DNA of 5,281 nt from a virus (taxonomy: Duplodnaviria; Heunggongvirae; Uroviricota; Caudoviricetes): positions 1 to 5,281 of IMG/VR virus record IMGVR_UViG_2663763286_000020. One strand, 5' to 3'. The number at the start of each line of letters is the position of its first letter. The stretch's first letter is position 1. Shown here piece after piece: positions 4 through 5,281 of this stretch. Position numbers and translations under genes: made by a program. Below the pieces are notes generated by a model. The model did no database searches and had not been told where the DNA came from. It saw only the letters and a program-made list of their open reading frames with translations.

Positions 4-807
4 GTGGTTGTTCAGAATCAGTCTGATGAAATTCCCGTTCTGGAATGGCAGGGAGTGCGTGTAGTGACAACTAAGATCCTTGCTAAGGGGTATGGGACAG
101 ATGCGGATAACATCAAGAAGAACTTTTCCCGTAATGCTGAACGTTTTTGTGAAGGCAAGCATTTCTATAAAGTTATTGGAGATGATTTGAACAATTTGCG
201 GGTGACTTTAAGTAACTCACAAAATCCTATCTCTCCTAAAGCCCGCTCACTCATCCTCTGGACGGAACGCGGCGCAGCCCGCCACGCTAAAATGCTCGAA
301 ACCGATCAGGCATGGGCATTCTTTGAAAAACTGGAAGACAGCTACTTCCGGCAAAAAGAACAGCAACCGGTTGCAATCCCCCAGACGCTTCCAGAAGCTC
401 TGCGCCTGGCTGCCGAACTGGCTGAACAAAAGCAGCTTCTGGAACAGAAAGCCCACCAGCTAAATCAGCAGCTGGTGGCCGCCGCTCCTAAAGTCGATTT
501 TGCCGACCGGGTATCAGTAGCTAAAGGGATCCTGATTGGGAATTTTGCAAAGGTTGTTGGACTTAAGCAAAACGCGCTGTTTGTCTGGTTACGGGAGAAC
601 GGCATCCTGATAGCGTCCGGTGGACGTAAAAATGTGCCGTTCCAGCAGTACATCAACGCGGGGTATTTCACGGTGAAAGAAGTGGTGCTGGATGATGAAG
701 ATGGCTACCAGATACGGTTGACGCCTCAATTAACGGGTAAAGGCCAGCAGTGGTTGACGCGTAAACTGCTCGATGCTGGCTTGTTAAAACCGGTGGCGGC
801 TGAATAA
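4..807 (+). CDS. Antirepressor-family protein, left paralog: N-terminal ORF6N/KilA-N-like module plus C-terminal KilAC-like antirepressor domain. The frame is open from base 1, so the start may be GTG at 4 or lie upstream of the window.
   Basis: 267-codon ORF ending TAA 805-807. N-terminal motifs (LAKGYGTD..NIKKNFSRNAERFCEGKHFYKV..LWTERGAARHAKML..AWAFFEKLEDSYF) and C-terminal motifs (LPEALRLAAE..KGILIGNFAKVVGL..GILIASGGRKNVPFQQYINAGYFTVKEV) fit that architecture by recall, not by a database hit. Bases 1-3 are CTG where the right-hand paralog has ATG. Confidence 0.8.
   Translation: MVVQNQSDEIPVLEWQGVRVVTTKILAKGYGTDADNIKKNFSRNAERFCEGKHFYKVIGDDLNNLRVTLSNSQNPISPKARSLILWTERGAARHAKMLETDQAWAFFEKLEDSYFRQKEQQPVAIPQTLPEALRLAAELAEQKQLLEQKAHQLNQQLVAAAPKVDFADRVSVAKGILIGNFAKVVGLKQNALFVWLRENGILIASGGRKNVPFQQYINAGYFTVKEVVLDDEDGYQIRLTPQLTGKGQQWLTRKLLDAGLLKPVAAE
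256..807. repeat. Left arm of a long inverted repeat (3' about 550 bp of the antirepressor-like gene); partner is about 4478-5029.
   Basis: Spot comparison of segments 241-540 with the reverse complement of 4741-5050 shows 0-4 substitutions per 60 nt (about 95-97% identity), mostly synonymous. Boundaries are approximate; no full alignment was computed. Confidence 0.8.
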
Positions 808-839: not shown

Positions 840-1691
840 TTATTGCGCGCTTTCGGGGTTGTCGTTTACTGGCTGCCCCTTCTTGGTTTTACGGCTGCGC
901 GTAACTGATGCGGCTGATTTGACCTTTTTCTCTTCGCGAGTGATGGCAATTTGTTTTTTTACATTTTCAATATCTGCCAGGCGATATATTTTTGCCTGCG
1001 GCCAGCGGTCGCAGATGATCGGTTCTATAGAGTCATAAAGGCTAAATTTTGCTTTCTCGAATTCACCGTTGATGATGATTCCATCACGGAGAGTTTCATC
1101 GCAGATAAACACACCACACAGCGGCACATGGTAACTAACTGATTTACCATCATTGTAGTTAGGGCTACTAGAAATGTAATGGACGCGCAGCATTGTTTCG
1201 CTAAAGCCGTGTACGCGCATACGGAATTTTTCATCCTCCGGGTACTGCTTCATTAGCTCTTTTGTTGCTTCCAGGTTCTCTATGTATTTCGCACTGTGCT
1301 CATTGATCCCCGCGCTTTTTTGGATGCGAATGTCCTTATCAATCAGATGAATAATGCGGCCAGCGGTCATGTTGACGCTGTTCACAGCTTCTGTCTGATA
1401 AGTTGTAACCTTACGCACACCGCGAAGGGTGTTAGGCACTGGATATAAAATAGTCTTTGGGATATTGAGGTCTGGGTACTGTTCCAGTTCCCGCGCCATT
1501 AAAGTCCATTTATCAATTTCAGCCTGAATGCTGTCAGTTTCTTTGAACGGTAGAACGACAACCGGGCGTACAGGACGACCGTCGCTGGCTGTATCAACGT
1601 GTTGGGCGCGTGCAACAGCTTTTTTTAGAAAGAGATCCCTGAAGCTGACGAACTCCTGGTACAGTTGTTCGCCGTAGACATAATTTATCAT
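840..1691 (-). CDS. c1: C1 immunity repressor of phage P1 type.
   Basis: 283-aa product MINYVYGEQLYQEFVSFRDLFLKK... matches recalled P1 C1 in length and sequence. ATG at 1689-1691 (complement) is preceded by a strong SD GGAGGAGG with 4-nt spacing; stop TAA at 840-842 (complement). Confidence 0.95.
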   Translation of the reverse strand: MINYVYGEQLYQEFVSFRDLFLKKAVARAQHVDTASDGRPVRPVVVLPFKETDSIQAEIDKWTLMARELEQYPDLNIPKTILYPVPNTLRGVRKVTTYQTEAVNSVNMTAGRIIHLIDKDIRIQKSAGINEHSAKYIENLEATKELMKQYPEDEKFRMRVHGFSETMLRVHYISSSPNYNDGKSVSYHVPLCGVFICDETLRDGIIINGEFEKAKFSLYDSIEPIICDRWPQAKIYRLADIENVKKQIAITREEKKVKSAASVTRSRKTKKGQPVNDNPESAQ

Positions 1692-1758: not shown

Positions 1759-1802
1759 ATTATAGAAGGATCCAACGAAAATAATAGATTTATTAGTGCA
1801 TT
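1759..1802 (-). promoter_or_regulatory. Candidate c1-proximal promoter with a C1 operator-like site at the -35 position.
   Basis: A perfect TATAAT on the minus strand (complement of 1759-1764). 22 bp upstream, at 1786-1802, the minus-strand sequence AATGCACTAATAAATCT matches 14/17 of the P1 C1 operator consensus ATTGCTCTAATAAATTT. The site overlaps the coi stop codon. Confidence 0.45.
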
Positions 1803-2011
1803 TATTGTGAGTCTGGCTGGTTAGTGGCCATGAGATATTCGATTGTGTCAGTGAGATCATCCAGGTCGTCTTGGGTGATGCGGTACTCCTGATTGGATAT
1901 CTTTGAGTAGTGTTCAGCAATGGCGCGGGCAGCGTCGGTTTCGGCGGGGTCTACAGATAAAGCGTTAGAGCAATGTCTAACGTCGTCGATGGTTGGTGGA
2001 ATGAAAGCCAT
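1802..2011 (-). CDS. coi: Coi-like C1 inactivator, a small acidic protein co-oriented with and upstream of c1.
   Basis: 69-aa ORF MAFIPPTIDDVRHCSNALSVDPAETDAARAIAEHYSK... in the position and of the size of P1 coi. ATG at 2009-2011 (complement). Assigned by synteny and size; the sequence was not verified against a database. Confidence 0.8.
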   Translation of the reverse strand: MAFIPPTIDDVRHCSNALSVDPAETDAARAIAEHYSKISNQEYRITQDDLDDLTDTIEYLMATNQPDSQ

Positions 2012-2245
2012 AATTATGCCTCACTGTATTGACAACACAGAGCCTGAAGCTCTGACCTACTGTTTCACCCATGATCCATGCTGGGGTAATCTAACAACAT
2101 TGCGCTGTGTGTAAGATGAGCAATGCATAGCTGTAATGCCGTTGTATAAGGTTTCCCTGTTTGCTCATTTCCTTCTGAGCCGCTCTACAACGCTGAAGAC
2201 ACATTAAATAGTGAATCCAAAGTCGTATTACGAAACGGCGGCAAA

Positions 2246-2272
2246 ACTATAATTTATTAGAGCAATTGTCAA
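2246..2272 (-). promoter_or_regulatory. Minus-strand promoter for the coi-c1 operon with an overlapping C1 operator (the P99a/Op99a-type arrangement of P1).
   Basis: On the minus strand, a -35 TTGACA (complement of 2267-2272) is followed directly by ATTGCTCTAATAAATTA (complement of 2250-2266), a 16/17 match to the C1 operator consensus. A -10-like TATAGT (complement of 2246-2251) follows with 15-nt spacing. Confidence 0.65.
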
Positions 2273-2332
2273 ACAACTATGAAAAACAATCCAGTTTTTG
2301 GCTGGTGGAGTGGGATTTTTCTCTCAAAATTT

Positions 2333-2349
2333 ATTGCTCTAATAATTCT
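2333..2349 (+). promoter_or_regulatory. C1 operator-like site in plus orientation, about 45 bp from loxP.
   Basis: ATTGCTCTAATAATTCT matches 15/17 of the consensus ATTGCTCTAATAAATTT, with the first 13 positions perfect. Confidence 0.6.
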
Positions 2350-2392
2350 TGATTTTTATGCGTAGCTGGACGTAAACTCCTCTTCAGACCTA

Positions 2393-2426
2393 ATAACTTC
2401 GTATAGCATACATTATACGAAGTTAT
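2393..2426. other. loxP: loxP site-specific recombination site (Cre target).
   Basis: ATAACTTCGTATA-GCATACAT-TATACGAAGTTAT: perfect 13-bp inverted repeats around the asymmetric 8-bp spacer. This is an exact match to wild-type loxP (spacer reads ATGTATGC on the other strand). Confidence 0.97.
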
Positions 2427-2498
2427 CTTAAGGGTTATTGAACATGATTAATTTACCTGTAAATCCATACAGTTCAATACCTTATCAGGTCAAATAGT

Positions 2499-2518
2499 GA
2501 TCACTTGATCATTTGATC
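2499..2518 (+). promoter_or_regulatory. Dam-methylation (GATC) cluster in the cre upstream promoter region.
   Basis: Three GATC sites at 2499-2502, 2507-2510 and 2515-2518 (8-bp spacing) inside palindromic TGATCA/TTGATCAA units, with TTGATC hexamers resembling a -35 element. P1 cre is known to have an upstream promoter whose -35 region carries Dam sites. Confidence 0.6.
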
Positions 2519-2523
2519 AAGGT

Positions 2524-2584
2524 TGCGCTACGTAAAATCTGCGAAATGTTGGCAGTGTTAGTGCTCCAGATTTCGCGTAGCGCA
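2524..2584. repeat. Long imperfect inverted repeat between the GATC cluster and the small ORF upstream of cre.
   Basis: TGCGCTACG (2524-2532) pairs with CGTAGCGCA (2576-2584), and AAATCTG (2535-2541) pairs with CAGATTT (2567-2573), with a 2-nt internal mismatch and a 25-nt loop. No U-tract follows. Confidence 0.5.
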
Positions 2585-2615
2585 CTTACCACCACCAATC
2601 AATCAGAGGTGAAAA

Positions 2616-2837
2616 ATGGGATATTCAGCTGCTAAAGTGTCCACTCATATTGAGCTTGAGAAAAACCGTGGTTACTGGCGGGCAAAAGGGTTTGATCGTG
2701 ATAGTTGTCAACTGTCATTATCGCGCGGTGAAGAGAAAATAGAACGCACGCGCGGTCGCTGGCGTTTCTATGACGAGAACCATAAACAGGTAAAGGCAGA
2801 GCCGATCCTGTACACTTTACTTAAAACCATTATCTGA
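2616..2837 (+). CDS. Small basic hypothetical protein (73 aa) immediately upstream of cre, probably co-transcribed with it.
   Basis: ATG at 2616 is preceded by a good SD AGAGGTGA. The product is R/K-rich (MGYSAAKVSTHIELEKNRGYWRAKGFDRD...). Stop TGA 2835-2837 lies 7 nt before the cre ATG. Function not recognised. Confidence 0.5.
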   Translation: MGYSAAKVSTHIELEKNRGYWRAKGFDRDSCQLSLSRGEEKIERTRGRWRFYDENHKQVKAEPILYTLLKTII

Positions 2838-2844
2838 GTGTTAA

Positions 2845-3876
2845 ATGTCCAATTTACTGACCGTACACCAAAATTTGCCTGCATTACCGGTCGATGCAAC
2901 GAGTGATGAGGTTCGCAAGAACCTGATGGACATGTTCAGGGATCGCCAGGCGTTTTCTGAGCATACCTGGAAAATGCTTCTGTCCGTTTGCCGGTCGTGG
3001 GCGGCATGGTGCAAGTTGAATAACCGGAAGTGGTTTCCCGCAGAACCTGAAGATGTTCGCGATTATCTTCTATATCTTCAGGCGCGCGGTCTGGCAGTGA
3101 AAACTATCCAGCAACATTTGGGCCAGCTAAATATGCTTCATCGTCGGTCCGGTCTGCCACGACCAAGTGACAGCAATGCTGTTTCACTGGTCATGCGACG
3201 GATCCGAAAAGAAAACGTTGATGCCGGTGAGCGTGCAAAACAGGCGCTGGCGTTCGAACGCACTGATTTCGACCAGGTTCGTTCACTCATGGAAAATAGC
3301 GATCGCTGCCAGGATATACGTAATCTGGCATTTCTGGGGATTGCTTATAACACCCTGTTACGTATAGCCGAAATTTCCAGGATCAGGGTTAAAGATATCT
3401 CACGTACTGACGGTGGGAGAATGTTAATCCATATTGGCAGAACGAAAACGCTGGTTAGCACCGCTGGTGTAGAGAAGGCACTTAGCCTGGGGGTAACTAA
3501 ACTGGTTGAGCGATGGATTTCTGTCTCTGGTGTAGCTGATGATCCGAATAACTACCTGTTTTGCCGCGTCAGAAAAAATGGTGTTGCCGCGCCATCATCC
3601 ACCAGCCAGCTATCAACTCGCGCCCTGGAAGGGATTTTTGAAGCAACTCACCGATTGATTTACGGGGCAAAAGATGACTCTGGTCAGCGATACCTGGCCT
3701 GGTCTGGACATAGTGCCCGTGTCGGTGCCGCGCGAGATATGGCCCGCGCCGGAGTTTCAATACCGGAGATCATGCAAGCTGGTGGCTGGACCAACGTAAA
3801 TATTGTCATGAACTACATTCGTAACCTGGATAGTGAAACAGGGGCAATGGTGCGCCTGCTGGAAGATGGCGATTAG
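2845..3876 (+). CDS. cre: Cre tyrosine site-specific recombinase (P1 type).
   Basis: 343-aa product MSNLLTVHQNLPALPVDATSDEVRKNLMDMFRDRQAFSEHTWKMLL...GWTNVNIVMNYIRNLDSETGAMVRLLEDGD recognised as P1 Cre. Its cognate loxP lies 418 bp upstream. Confidence 0.98.
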   Translation: MSNLLTVHQNLPALPVDATSDEVRKNLMDMFRDRQAFSEHTWKMLLSVCRSWAAWCKLNNRKWFPAEPEDVRDYLLYLQARGLAVKTIQQHLGQLNMLHRRSGLPRPSDSNAVSLVMRRIRKENVDAGERAKQALAFERTDFDQVRSLMENSDRCQDIRNLAFLGIAYNTLLRIAEISRIRVKDISRTDGGRMLIHIGRTKTLVSTAGVEKALSLGVTKLVERWISVSGVADDPNNYLFCRVRKNGVAAPSSTSQLSTRALEGIFEATHRLIYGAKDDSGQRYLAWSGHSARVGAARDMARAGVSIPEIMQAGGWTNVNIVMNYIRNLDSETGAMVRLLEDGD

Positions 3877-3893
3877 CCATTAACGCGTAAATT

Positions 3894-3910
3894 ATTGCTC
3901 TAATTCATTG
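3894..3910 (+). promoter_or_regulatory. C1 operator-like site between cre and the downstream small ORF (position of P1 Op2-type operators).
   Basis: ATTGCTCTAATTCATTG matches 14/17 of the consensus, with the first 11 positions perfect. Confidence 0.45.
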
Positions 3911-3926
3911 ATATTTATGGTGACAT

Positions 3927-4238
3927 ATGAGAAAGGATTTCAACATCGACGGAAAATATGTAGTGCTGTCTGTAAGCACTAATATTCAGTCGCCAGCCGT
4001 CATTGTCACTGTAAAGCTGAGCGATAGAATGCCTGATATTGACTCAATATCCGTTGCGTTCCCTGTCAAAAGTATGCGTGGTGCTGAACATTTCGTGATT
4101 AACGCCTCCGAGGAAGAAGCACGGCGCGGTTTTGCTAAAGTGATGTCTGAGTTTGGCGAATTTTTGTGGCACGTTGACAAAGCCCTCTCAATCAGTTCAG
4201 CAAGGTCCAAAGCGTTAACAGCTTCCATGATGAAATAA
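3927..4238 (+). CDS. Hypothetical 103-aa protein downstream of cre, in the position occupied by cra in P1. The sequence itself is not recognised.
   Basis: ATG 3927 with a weak SD (GGTGA, short spacing). Residue composition looks protein-like (..SEEEARRGFAKVMSEFGEFLWHVDKALS..). An operator-like site lies 17 bp upstream. Preferred over the overlapping minus-strand ORF 3986-4318, which contains a terminator hairpin. Confidence 0.5.
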   Translation: MRKDFNIDGKYVVLSVSTNIQSPAVIVTVKLSDRMPDIDSISVAFPVKSMRGAEHFVINASEEEARRGFAKVMSEFGEFLWHVDKALSISSARSKALTASMMK

Positions 4239-4262
4239 AAAAGCCTGGCAAGGAGCCAGGCT
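4233..4262 (-). terminator. Intrinsic terminator oriented for minus-strand transcripts.
   Basis: Hairpin AGCCTGG-caaggag-CCAGGCT (4242-4262). On the minus strand it is followed by TTTTTATTT (plus-strand A-tract 4233-4241). On the plus strand it sits 3 nt after the 4236-4238 stop codon but has no downstream T-tract. Confidence 0.6.
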
Positions 4263-4368
4263 GCACAAAAGAGCGGGTTTGTATTCCGCATACAATCAAT
4301 CAAGAAGGAGTATAGCACACAGGTACTGAAGAGAAAAAATGTGATTCGCGATAAATAAAATAGCCACT

Positions 4369-4412
4369 ATTGCTATAATTAATTGTTATAATTGAGTTGT
4401 GGCTTTAGTCAA
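4369..4412 (-). promoter_or_regulatory. Promoter island with a C1 operator-like site: minus-strand promoter TTGACT-16-TATAAC, plus two plus-strand TATAAT boxes.
   Basis: Minus strand: -35 TTGACT (complement of 4407-4412), 16-nt spacer, -10 TATAAC (complement of 4385-4390). ATTGCTATAATTAATTG (4369-4385) matches 14/17 of the operator consensus and overlaps the -10 and predicted start. Plus-strand TATAAT at 4374-4379 and 4387-4392. Confidence 0.45.
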
Positions 4413-4451
4413 CTACGAAGACATTGCCATTATAGACTCCGTGACATCATT

Positions 4452-4475
4452 GGCGGCCGAAAGGCCGCCTTTTTT
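4452..4475 (+). terminator. Rho-independent terminator for plus-strand transcripts, at the inner edge of the right inverted-repeat arm.
   Basis: GGCGGCC-gaaa-GGCCGCC, a perfect 7-bp GC stem with a GNRA-type tetraloop, followed by six T (4470-4475). It lies 2 nt from the stop codon of the convergent minus-strand gene. Confidence 0.8.
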
Positions 4476-4477
4476 AA

Positions 4478-5029
4478 TCATTCAGCCGCCACCGGTTTTA
4501 ACAAGCCAGCATCGAGCAGTTTACGCGTCAACCACTGTTGGCCTTTCCCCGTTAATTGAGGCGTCAGCCGTATCTGATAGCCATCTTCATCATCCAGCAC
4601 CACTTCTTTCACTGTGAAATATCCGGCGTTTATGTACTGCTGAAACGGTACATTTTTACGTCCGCCGGACGCAATCAGGATGCCGTTCTCCCGTAACCAG
4701 GCAAACAGCGCATTTTGCTTAAGTCCAACAACCTTTGCAAAATTCCCAATCAGGATCCCCTTAGCCACTGATACCCGGTCGGCAAAATCGACCTTAGGGG
4801 CGGCGGCCACCAGCTGCTGATTTAGCTGGTGGGCTTTCTGTTCCAGAAGTTGCTTTTGTTCAGCCAGCTCGGCAGCCAGGCGCAGAGCTTCGGGAAGCGT
4901 CTGAGGGATTGCGACCGGTTGCTGTTCTTTTTGCCGGAAGTAGCTGTCTTCCAGTTTTTCAAAGAATGCCCATGCCTGATCGGTTTCGATCATTTTAGCG
5001 TGGCGGGCTGCGCCGCGTTCCGTCCAGAG
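4478..5029. repeat. Right arm of the long inverted repeat (partner of about 256-807).
   Basis: Reverse complement of 4741-5050 aligns colinearly with 241-540 at high identity (see left arm). Boundary is approximate. Confidence 0.8.
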
Positions 5030-5281
5030 AGTGAGGTTTCTGGCGTTCTTACCAACAGAGTTACTAAAAGTAACTCTGTTCTTAAATTCCTTTAATTTTG
5101 AACCAGTTAAAAGAAAGTAGTGTTTACCTTCTTCAAAGCGATCGGAGTTGCAAGACAAATTTTTACGAATATTGCCTTCATCGGTTCCGTACCCCTTAGC
5201 AAGAGTTTCGGTTGTTACGACACGTACTCCCTGCCATTCCAGAACGGGAATTTCATCAGACTGATTCTGAACAACCACCAT
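4478..5281 (-). CDS. Antirepressor-family protein, right paralog (ORF6N/KilA-N-like N-terminus plus KilAC-like C-terminus), inverted relative to the left copy.
   Basis: 267-aa ORF starting with ATG at 5279-5281 (complement), exactly at the window edge, with stop TGA at 4478-4480 (complement). The C-terminal ~180 residues differ from the left copy at only 2 positions. N-terminal motifs RFEEGKHYFLLTGSKLKEFKN and LWTERGAARHAKMI are typical of this domain family. Confidence 0.85.
   Translation of the reverse strand: MVVVQNQSDEIPVLEWQGVRVVTTETLAKGYGTDEGNIRKNLSCNSDRFEEGKHYFLLTGSKLKEFKNRVTFSNSVGKNARNLTLWTERGAARHAKMIETDQAWAFFEKLEDSYFRQKEQQPVAIPQTLPEALRLAAELAEQKQLLEQKAHQLNQQLVAAAPKVDFADRVSVAKGILIGNFAKVVGLKQNALFAWLRENGILIASGGRKNVPFQQYINAGYFTVKEVVLDDEDGYQIRLTPQLTGKGQQWLTRKLLDAGLLKPVAAE

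Follow-up and report, generated by a model that had tools for sequence, protein, structure and literature searches.

The ref gene of phage P1 is repressed by C1, whose binding site occludes one of the ref promoters, and it is induced during the lytic cycle (PMC4713147). According to the same paper and to the titles of Windle 1988 and of Schaefer and Hays 1990, P1 ref is subject both to repression by C1 (with Lxc/Bof) and to attenuation at a hairpin. In P1 and P7 (GenBank AF234172 and AF503408), the working parts of this control region are the extended -10 promoter P2ref, overlapped by the C1 operator Oref, then the weak promoter P1ref, and then a GC-rich hairpin with a T-run in front of the ref start codon. 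P1 further carries the immI operon, which comprises the C4 antisense RNA, icd and ant1/ant2. Insertions are known from P1-like plasmids: ant was inserted between pacB and c1 in pTZ20_1P and RCS47 (Venturini et al. 2019, PMC6906374), while pJIE250-3 carries five ORFs between c8 and mat, with an AT-rich junction beside four ATTG repeats at P1 1957-1982 (PMC6906374). These repeats coincide with the Oref/P2ref site.

We analysed a window of 5,281 nt, that is, the whole stretch of DNA under study. Its segment 4265-4451 (35.3% GC versus 46.6% across the whole window) had been singled out in a preliminary description as an orphan promoter island between two opposing terminators. With a probability of roughly 80%, we consider this island to be the known regulatory region of P1 ref, orphaned in a P1-like plasmid lineage without ref. 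That is, the island is an ordinary evolutionary leftover and no new kind of element: a known element, orphaned and decaying.

An island orthologous to the ref control region of P1

Window positions 4200-4475 correspond to P1 1791-2069, which spans the end of c8 and the c8-ref intergenic region (90.7% identity over 276 nt; 18 phage records). The idea that the island might be a vestigial ref promoter was supported by this similarity: the segment corresponds base by base to the stretch between c8 and ref in P1 and to the ref leader, with the annotated Oref, P2ref and P1ref inside it. As in P1 and P7, the region lies directly after c8, and each of its elements aligns base for base with its counterpart: the operator 17-mer, the TGnTATAAT -10, both P1ref hexamers, and the leader hairpin together with the T-run. 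Pairwise alignment placed Oref at 4369-4385, P2ref at 4387-4392 and P1ref at 4424-4450 (Table 1). Identity to P1 was 100% in T1, 96.9% in 4263-4360, 80.4% in 4361-4451 and 84% in T2. Across promoter and leader, identity to P1 is only 80%, versus 97-100% for the part adjoining c8. A difference from P1 and P7 lies downstream, where the window has no ref and a convergent ant abuts the T-run.

The gene upstream of the island had been taken for cra, which proved to be wrong. The gene ending at 4238 is c8, and cra is annotated in P1 as a 73-codon ORF upstream of cre, found here at 2616-2837. For the c8 protein, no Pfam family match was obtained.

A terminator pattern scan confirmed that the AT-rich island is bracketed by T1 on the minus strand and T2 on the plus strand. 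Within 3800-4600, three terminator-like sites were found versus 0.7 expected. The hairpin energies of T1 and T2 are about -15 to -16 kcal/mol, and in both hairpins the T-run is confined to one side, so that the orientations given before were correct. Like intrinsic (Rho-independent) terminators, both predicted sites combine a GC-rich stem of 7-8 pairs and a short loop with at least five T on one strand. In the pattern scan, the T1 stem (4262 to 4242) has eight pairs, six of them GC, followed by TTTTTTATTTC; its flanks read TTTTTATTTCAT on the minus strand and GCACAAAAGAGC on the plus strand. T1 is 100% identical to P1, and its 21-mer was the same in 87 of 93 loci (pi 0.006). The T2 stem (4452-4469) consists of seven GC pairs closed by a GAAA loop, where P1 has ATTA. 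T2 is the orthologue of the P1 and P7 ref-leader hairpin, with which it shares an identical stem and which ends 8 nt before the P1 ref ATG (P1 2077). Across 19 distinct leaders the stem was unchanged and the loop free (GAAA, ATTA, GCAA, TAAA, ATCA), and the stem was kept in 18 of the 19 ant-linked loci. From its position in the ref leader and from the paper title, T2 is probably the ref attenuator of Windle et al. 1988, 'attenuator' being a word in that title as cited in PMC4713147.

The other contents of the island, namely plus-strand TATAAT boxes and a C1 operator-like 17-mer without a credible ORF, were also confirmed. ORFs overlapping 4265-4451 are only short, cross a terminator hairpin or run antisense to c8 or ant, and none of them is credible. 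Likewise, every small ORF found in 4239-4477 (20 codons or more) either traverses a hairpin or lies antisense to c8 or ant. With 39 codons open past the TAA in the window, read-through of the c8 stop codon was considered. It was rejected because the number of A residues following the stop differs between loci, from 5 to 9, and thereby alters the frame. The idea of a leader peptide read in the ref frame was discarded as well, because a 1-nt indel between P1 and the window changes the frame of the shared leader block and the length of the T-run varies between loci (frames judged by eye).

Table 1. Features at the c8-ant side of the window, with their P1 counterparts where mapped
Feature	Position	Strand	Basis and remarks
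c8 gene, 103 codons	3927-4238	+	ORF list; corresponds to P1 annotation c8 1518-1829, 'establishment of lysogeny, putative'
T1, intrinsic-terminator-like hairpin, stem 4242-4262	4233-4262	-	Pattern scan; -15.6 kcal/mol; T-run overlaps c8 stop codon
Conserved non-coding block	4263-4345		pi 0.029; no feature annotated in P1 1830-1956; no credible ORF
Hypervariable spacer just upstream of operator	4346-4368		pi 0.20
Oref orthologue (formerly Op1/Op2a), C1 operator-like	4369-4385	+	Mapped from P1 1962-1978; reads ATTGCTATAATTAATTG
Second extended -10 motif TGCTATAAT, inside operator	4371-4379	+	Sequence reading; created by C-to-A
P2ref -10 with upstream TG, TGTTATAAT, rightward extended -10	4384-4392	+	P1 P2ref -10 at 1980-1985; expected start about 4399
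Minus-strand promoter candidate: TTGACT (4412-4407), 16-nt spacer, TATAAC (4390-4385)	4385-4412	-	Sequence reading
P1ref orthologue, predicted weak promoter (TTGCCA, 15-nt spacer, CATCAT)	4424-4450	+	Mapped from P1 2017-2044
T2, GGCGGCC-GAAA-GGCCGCC then TTTTTT	4452-4475	+	Pattern scan; alignment to P1 2046-2069; -15.8 kcal/mol
Junction of P1 ref-leader homology and inverted ant module	4476-4477		Join in or beside T/A run
Convergent antirepressor gene ant, 3' 804 nt, cut by window end	4478-5281	-	Pfam ANT 5.7e-33, ORF6N 6.8e-20 (ORF6N and KilAC domains)

Absence of ref and the junction with ant

Identity to P1 drops from 84% in T2 to 36% past 4475, and the similarity ends two bases before the convergent ant stop codon (4478-4480), so that T2 lies 2 nt past the end of ant. 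One possibility raised before was a promoter cut off at the right arm of an inverted repeat. Homology indeed stops after the T-run at 4475, but T2 belongs to the ref leader and is no trapping boundary. The junction, TTTTTTAATCA, was identical in all 19 ant-linked loci that were fetched. In about 600 of the 707 matching plasmid records, the similarity ends at query position 237 (window 4475), as it does in P1, and in only 56 does it run on into ant. Plasmid pE2865-1 is 100% identical to the window over 4239-4600, and a tblastn search of this whole plasmid with P1 Ref found no ref homologue (best E = 1.8). In this lineage, ref was probably replaced by an inverted c4-icd-ant immunity module that was joined immediately after the T-run.

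The ant gene at 4478-5281 forms the right arm of an inverted repeat with 4-807 (repeat 250-818 / 4467-5035 at 95%). In pE2865-1 the full gene has 370 codons, and upstream of it lie an icd-like gene, a C4 RNA (71.7 bits) and its a1b1 target (53.2 bits), with a perfect C1 operator upstream of the whole module. These are the parts of P1 immI, in the order C1 operator, a1b1 target, C4 RNA, icd-like gene and ant, and P1 ant1/2 is about 80% identical to the 3' 420 nt of the module's ant. In contrast to immI, the module is an extra, inverted copy; pE2865-1 has four icd-ant modules, one of them at the canonical immI position. The island itself differs from immI in having no C4-like RNA. A search for C4-type antisense RNA (RF01695 / RF03163) gave no match in the window; matches were confined to the neighbouring module, in front of its icd (L003 3447-3532 and 3601-3653).

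Other ant copies end in TGA, followed by an A-run and a hairpin of their own. The two copies most similar to the c8-side one are followed by a GCCCGG...CCGGGC hairpin, which the c8-side copy lacks. T1 would then stop leftward read-through from ant, whose own terminator would have been lost at the join, and T2 would stop rightward transcripts from c8 or from the ref promoters. Judged from sequence, both hairpins probably continue to serve as terminators where two transcription units converge. Compared to the P1-like plasmids of PMC6906374, the join lies after the leader terminator and not at the ATTG repeats, and the insert is an inverted immI-type module. We found no description of such an arrangement, an inverted immI-type module joined after the ref leader, in the literature searched.

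Decay of the operator in ant-linked loci

The operator reads ATTGCTATAATTAATTG in the window and ATTGCTCTAATTGATTG in P1. Of the 17 positions of the window form, 14 agree with the C1 operator consensus ATTGCTCTAATAAATTT; five such sites were found in the window versus 0.05 expected by chance. We fetched and compared 93 related loci, among them 68 ref-linked and 19 ant-linked ones; in all, about 700 PLSDB plasmid records match. The operator core ATTGCTCTAAT was intact in all 68 ref-linked loci and substituted in 11 of the 19 ant-linked loci, including the window (C7 to A), a contrast that rests on few mutational events and not on 19 independent trials, the 93 loci being phylogenetically non-independent. 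In the ref-linked loci, pi of the core was 0.000 beside a spacer with pi 0.18. In the 19 ant-linked loci it was 0.118, in a set that is more diverse everywhere (pi 0.055 versus 0.020 in ref-linked loci for the block 4263-4345). Lesions of at least three types occur in the ant-linked loci, namely C7A, C5T and a 13-bp deletion in which the -10 is lost. Since no gene is left under its control, the operator would no longer be maintained.

Core position 7 is C in P1 and P7, in all 68 ref-linked loci and in the other operator copies examined (window, L002, L003), but A at the Oref of the window. The island had been called C1-controlled. What stands is an operator-like site at the orthologous place; control by C1 is doubtful here, because an invariant position of the core is mutated. 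The same exchange makes a second TGCTATAAT, at which promoter activity is predicted from the motif. At the cre-c8 operator site, the same change from operator core to TGCTATAAT was present in eight other loci.

The plus-strand TATAAT boxes at 4374-4379 and 4387-4392 are each preceded by TGn. At P2ref, TGnTATAAT was found in 65 of the 68 ref-linked and 15 of the 19 ant-linked loci. The annotated weak -35 of P2ref maps from P1 to 4364-4369, which reads CCACTA here, and the P1ref spacer is one base shorter in the window than in P1. A transcript from 4384-4392 or from the new TGCTATAAT would be about 75-90 nt long and stop at T2, and read-through of T2 would give an RNA antisense to the 3' end of ant; the transcripts of the island are expected from sequence throughout.

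Of the 19 ant-linked loci, 15 retain an unaltered TATAAT hexamer, and the same junction occurs in lineages that are about 12% apart in the island. The promoter therefore outlived ref for some time. Its survival without ref could reflect residual function instead of slow decay.

Alternative readings and implications

We considered whether the facing terminators create an overlap of 3' ends. Transcripts of c8 would pass T1 and end at T2, those of ant would pass T2 and end at T1, and the resulting complementary 3' UTRs of about 240 nt could couple the stability of both, for example through RNase III. This appears unlikely to us. The T-runs, one per hairpin, do face outward from the island, the scan detected no plus-strand terminator between the c8 stop and T2, and the join left the c8-side ant copy with no terminator of its own. 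However, the argument is purely structural, and P1-type genomes have the same T1/T2 arrangement without a convergent gene, so it arose for no such purpose. Moreover, C4 of P1 immI holds down ant transcription in the lysogen, and by analogy it should do so here.

The conserved part of the region requires separate consideration. In 4263-4345, pi is 0.029, versus 0.15 at four-fold sites of c8 and 0.067 at those of cre. Together with T1 and the last 38 nt of c8, this block forms a conserved stretch of about 145 nt (4201-4345), for which the reading of the island as the ref control region does not account. AAGGAG occurs in the block at 4305-4310, with no start codon after it. The sequence GTATAGCACAC (4310-4320) resembles the loxP core and was tried as a lox half-site, which we rejected, as its flanking 13-mer agrees with the Cre-binding arm at 7 of 13 positions (by eye). 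T1 and 4201-4345 might form an unannotated element of all P1-like phages, either the 3' part of a minus-strand regulatory RNA or an element in the c8 3' UTR that influences c8 or ref expression. Transcription in both directions might then be under the operator at 4369-4385, and in ant-linked plasmids the element might also couple c8 to the extra antirepressor copy via overlapping convergent transcripts. We regard this as quite unlikely.

The preliminary description offered, as one possibility, a C1-repressible small RNA of 120-145 nt transcribed from a good minus-strand promoter. The hexamers TTGACT and TATAAC are present at a distance of 16 nt, but 'good' is an overstatement: the -10 ends in C and not in the near-invariant T, and a scan requiring that T did not call the promoter. 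Few promoter bases matter as much as this last T of the -10. In 87 of 87 ref- and ant-linked loci this base is C, and the fifth base is A, G or T, so that other loci read TATAGC, TATATC or TATGGC. Both features are explained by the overlapping plus-strand TGnTATAAT: the last base is C because it corresponds to the G of the P2ref TG motif, and the fifth base varies because it is the free 'n' of TGn. The -35 core TTGAC was found in 86 of 87 of these loci, but it sits within a near-invariant block of 15 nt, GTCAACTACGAAGAC (4408-4422), that is also part of the plus-strand leader. By eye, no alternative minus-strand promoter, that is, no TAnnnT hexamer with a usable -35, was seen nearer to the conserved block, where the stretch is hypervariable.

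An RNA from this promoter would start at about 4378, be blocked by C1 at 4369-4385 and end at T1, giving 140-145 nt in all P1-like phages. Some observations would fit. The T-run of T1 is on the minus strand only, in a hairpin with pi 0.006, and the P1 annotation has no gene on that strand downstream of T1 until res. The block 4263-4345, which would be the RNA body, varies less than the synonymous sites of c8 and cre do, and two linked substitutions in one small hairpin keep pairing by G-U wobble on the minus strand only. However, the conserved stretch does not match the proposed RNA: conservation runs 30 nt past the terminator into c8, and the 5' third of the RNA (4346-4378) falls in the most variable part of the region (pi 0.20). 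The folding z-score was only -2.0, and in an alignment of 20 sequences one of 26 predicted pairs showed changes on both sides, a pair that is broken in five sequences. No Rfam family matched the candidate at the gathering score (best 22.9 bits versus a threshold of 75). The small RNA was thus not supported, neither by its -10 nor by an Rfam family or covariation, and we judge it very unlikely. A permissive Rfam scan of 3800-4700 returned sub-threshold matches only, driven by both terminator hairpins. When consensus structures were folded from 19 sequences of the plus-strand leader and from 20 of the minus-strand candidate, only the terminator hairpins were robust. In the P1 transcriptome papers searched, we found no strand-resolved transcript data for the region.

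Co-option of the orphan promoter, active when C1 falls or, with the operator mutated, constitutively, to make a terminated leader of about 77-90 nt as a small RNA or a read-through antisense RNA that lowers expression of the extra ant copy, is the least probable reading and in our view hardly to be expected. Several observations would agree with it: among the 19 ant-linked loci, 15 keep TG and TATAAT and 18 keep the T2 stem, C7A creates the second TGCTATAAT, one junction persists across lineages about 12% apart, and the plus-strand leader folds better than shuffles (z = -3.4, almost all from the terminator hairpin). However, no other part differs as much between ant-linked loci as the leader (pi 0.18), unlike a conserved small RNA, the -10 is deleted in one ant-linked lineage and reads CATAAT or TACAAT in others, the terminator hairpin is the only consensus structure, with no pair changed on both sides, and T2 is predicted to be strong (-15.8 kcal/mol, six T), so that read-through should be low.

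Taken as the orphaned ref control region, the odd-looking 'promoter island' is a remnant of a well-studied regulatory unit, which is of low interest alone and not worth pursuing as a new type of element. The comparison of ref-linked with ref-less lineages is a natural experiment, in which the Oref core was held constant only while ref was present. In addition, a single C-to-A change is enough to make the extended -10 promoter motif TGCTATAAT out of a C1 operator core, TGCTCTAAT. P1-like plasmids can carry as many as four icd-ant antirepressor modules, of which two flank c1-lox-cre-c8 as an inverted repeat, and this may affect immunity and genome stability.

The island and its counterpart in P1

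Its ORFs and the P1 annotation identify the window as the immC/lox/cre region of a P1-like phage-plasmid. At either end lies the 3' part of an antirepressor gene, present here as two inverted copies (arms 95% complementary over 569 nt), and 4239–4600 is 100% identical to the E. coli plasmid pE2865-1 (NZ_AP018809.1). The gene preceding the island (4265–4451), called cra in the preliminary description, is c8; the P1 annotation places cra upstream of cre. Strong inverted repeats were also seen between c1 and coi (1714–1730/1740–1756, 17-nt arms, 94%) and between lox and cra (2524–2541/2567–2584, 18-nt arms, 89%).

All of the elements first ascribed to the island were recovered. Its flanking terminators T1 and T2 are opposing, with T-runs on the minus strand only and on the plus strand only, respectively, and hairpin energies of about -15 to -16 kcal/mol for both. 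The 187 nt between the hairpins are AT-rich (35% GC versus 47% for the whole window) and contain two plus-strand TATAAT boxes as well as the C1 operator-like site ATTGCTATAATTAATTG at 4369–4385, one of five matches to the C1 operator consensus in the window (0.05 expected by chance). As had been stated, no credible ORF was detected in the island.

The suggestion that the island is a vestigial ref promoter was borne out by alignment: window 4200–4475 corresponds to P1 1791–2069 at 90.7% identity, and P7, SJ46, RCS47 and others align equally well. In the P1 record this interval comprises the c8 end and the c8–ref intergenic region. The P1 counterpart of T2 (2046–2069) ends 8 nt before the ref start codon, and therefore T2 lies inside the ref leader; P7 also has T2. 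It is the obvious candidate for the ref attenuator that the title of Windle et al. 1988 names. One ref promoter is occluded by a C1 site, ref expression is turned on during the lytic cycle, and the AT-rich 5' region is bound by H-NS (PMC4713147). By sequence orthology, the island is classed as a member of the P1 ref control region, from which it differs only in that ref does not follow the leader; its operator is doubtful. It is not a C4-type RNA.

Features of the window and of related records (window positions unless stated)
Feature	Position	Strand	Identity to P1	pi	Remarks
antirepressor gene 3' part, left arm (icd-ant module)	4–807	+			ORF6N + KilAC domains
c1	840–1691	-			ORFs, P1 annotation
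coi	1802–2011	-			ORFs, P1 annotation
loxP	about 2393–2426				ORFs, P1 annotation
cra	2616–2837				small ORF upstream of cre, P1 annotation
cre	2845–3876				ORFs, P1 annotation
c8	3927–4238				ORFs, P1 annotation
last 38 nt of c8	4201–4238			0.028	
T1	4239–4262		100%	0.006	
T1 hairpin	4242–4262	-			T-run TTTTTTATTT
segment	4263–4345			0.029	
segment	4263–4360		96.9%		
segment	4346–4368			0.20	
segment	4361–4451		80.4%		
Oref	4369–4385				transferred via P1 alignment
P2ref -10	4387–4392				transferred via P1 alignment
P1ref	4424–4429 and 4445–4450				transferred via P1 alignment
T2	4452–4475		84%		differences: three loop bases, one T-run indel
T2 hairpin	4452–4469	+			GGCGGCC-GAAA-GGCCGCC, then six T
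downstream of T2	after 4475		36%		
antirepressor gene 3' part, right arm (icd-ant module)	4478–5281	-			ORF6N + KilAC domains
P2ref	P1 1957–1985				annotated
Oref (formerly Op1/Op2a)	P1 1962–1978				annotated
P1ref	P1 2017–2044				annotated
ref ATG	P1 2077				annotated
icd-ant module	L003 (ant-linked plasmid) 2069–3733				
perfect C1 operator ATTGCTCTAATAAATTT	L003 3717–3733				upstream part of c8-side module
icd-ant modules	NZ_AP018809.1 42197–43461, 69901–71153, 96566–97896				

Promoter, operator and conserved flank

We compared 93 retrieved loci, made up of the window itself, 12 from annotated records and 80 from IMG/VR contigs; the island is followed by ref in 68, by ant in 19 and by other DNA in 6. 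TGnTATAAT occurs in 65 of the 68 ref-linked loci and the annotated P2ref -35 is poor and lies within a hypervariable stretch; the term extended -10 promoter suits P2ref better.

The preliminary description had also proposed a minus-strand small RNA starting from TTGACT-16-TATAAC, which we consider improbable. Both boxes are present, but 'good' overstated the promoter: its -10 ends in C and the pattern scan did not list it. TATAAC is the reverse complement of GTTATA, that is, the G of the P2ref TG, the free base n and TATA. In all 87 ref- and ant-linked loci the sixth base of this -10 is C, and the fifth is A, G or T, the pattern expected if selection acts on the plus-strand promoter only. The -35 core TTGAC is conserved, but inside a near-invariant 15-nt block, GTCAACTACGAAGAC (4408–4422), that is also plus-strand leader. 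Covariance and structure analysis of the candidate RNA gave essentially no covariation and a fold that beat shuffled sequences by only a modest margin (z = -2.0); no Rfam family matched it, and its 5' third is hypervariable. On the other side, T1 is minus-oriented and almost invariant although in P1 no minus-strand gene requiring it is annotated between c8 and res, and a 5-bp hairpin has two linked substitutions that preserve pairing on the minus strand only. The island does not qualify as an sRNA gene.

The block GTCAACTACGAAGAC itself hardly changes across the ref- and ant-linked loci, within a leader that varies around it, and its start persists in L008 and L009, two related loci whose homology stops a few bases on. 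Candidate roles are as an element of the leader RNA or of a promoter, or in protein binding.

For the ref promoter–operator, ref-linked and ant-linked loci differ. The operator core ATTGCTCTAAT is invariant in the 68 ref-linked loci (pi 0.000), where no part of the region varies more than the adjoining spacer (pi 0.18). Its pi is 0.118 in the 19 ant-linked loci, a contrast that, because the 93 loci are related, represents few mutational events rather than 19 independent trials and involves a set that is more diverse throughout. C7 is changed to A in nine of the 19 (two of them also C5T) and C5 to T alone in two. The window operator is one of the C7A cases; the other operator copies that were examined (window and the ant-linked plasmids L002 and L003) have C at position 7. 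C7A also converts TGCTCTAAT to TGCTATAAT and so creates another extended -10 motif, 13 bp upstream of P2ref. One further ant-linked locus, NZ_CP058750.1, has lost one copy of the 13-bp repeat ATTGCTCTAATTG/ATTGCTATAATTG, leaving TCTAAT in place of TATAAT. These changes are evidence that the promoter–operator is vestigial in the window lineage. The T2 stem is retained in 18 of 19 ant-linked loci, which fits a continuing terminator role.

In the window, operator and P2ref -10 form an imperfect 13-bp tandem repeat (ATTGCTATAATTA/ATTGTTATAATTG, 4369–4394); its P1 version, ATTGCTCTAATTG/ATTGCTATAATTG, corresponds to the 4x ATTG repeats, an insertion hot spot according to Venturini et al. 2019 (PMC6906374). 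A further C1 operator-like site, ATTGCTCTAATTCATTG (14/17 match), lies in the cre–c8 gap at 3894–3910. Most of the 93 loci carry the core ATTGCTCTAAT there, including P1 (ATTGCTCTAATTCTTTG), where no operator is annotated; eight loci have ATTGCTATAAT, the same operator-to-TGCTATAAT change as at Oref. Elsewhere this gap is highly variable (pi 0.16).

Upstream of the operator, about 145 nt (4201–4345: the final 38 nt of c8, T1 and a further 83 nt) are conserved at pi 0.006–0.029, compared with 0.10–0.14 per site in 4111–4200 and 0.15 at c8 four-fold sites. For 4263–4345 the value is less than half that of cre four-fold sites (0.067). The P1 annotation has no feature over this stretch, and a strong Shine-Dalgarno-like AAGGAG at 4305–4310 is followed by no start codon. 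The stretch could be a recombination-homogenised mosaic linker, a c8 3'-UTR element or part of an RNA.

An inverted immI-type module in place of ref

The island is the ref promoter–operator with its probable attenuator, without ref, in a lineage where an inverted immI-type module has been attached directly behind the leader terminator. Two bases past the T2 T-run, the convergent ant has its stop codon. ant comprises 370 codons in pE2865-1 and pO26_98E11_1, and upstream of the c8-side copy there follow an icd-like gene, the antisense RNA C4 (Rfam, 71.7 bits), its a1b1 target (53.2 bits) and a perfect C1 operator; the set is a complete immI-type module in inverted orientation. In the two copies most similar to the c8-side ant, TGA or TAA is followed by an A-rich stretch and an own hairpin, GCCCGG-TTGAT-GCCGGGC. 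Because the c8-side copy is without this hairpin and continues directly into the T2 complement, the join probably lies within the A/T run. The junction is identical in all 19 ant-linked loci, whose islands are up to about 12% apart.

Using P1 Ref, tblastn gave no match in the whole of pE2865-1, so the promoter there is truly an orphan. The plasmid has four icd-ant modules (c8 side, canonical immI position, downstream of dnaB, and pacB–c1 gap), two of which form a ~95% inverted repeat flanking c1-coi-lox-cra-cre-c8. In all six ant-linked plasmids examined (L002–L007) the c8 side faces the P1 mat region, which is occupied by an annotated mat, a hypothetical gene or another one; an unsystematic look revealed no inversion of the c1-to-c8 segment among them.

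Among 707 plasmid records matching window 4239–4600, the match ends at 4475, as in P1, in about 600 and runs on into ant in 56; smaller groups break at about 4432 or 4415. Venturini et al. 2019 reported ant inserted between pacB and c1, and c8–mat insertions at ATTG repeats (PMC6906374), which are Oref/P2ref; this makes the locus an already recognised hot spot for replacement. Beyond the c8-side module lie mat, a SIR2 gene and then res/mod. The SIR2-family and mat-like genes between module and res/mod (L003 3994–5996, downstream of the window) are another sign that the c8-to-res interval gathers accessory and defence genes.

From this arrangement, we infer that rightward transcripts from 4384–4392, and perhaps also from 4371–4379, would end at T2 after about 75–90 nt, with C1 control weakened or lost. 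T2 would stop rightward transcription from c8 and Pref, and T1 any leftward transcription running on from ant, which presumably lost its own terminator at the join; promoter and operator appear to be in decay. Elements of this kind have been known since 1988, with annotation in GenBank; the orphaned state of the island, like the four-fold antirepressor modules, is a lineage-specific detail.
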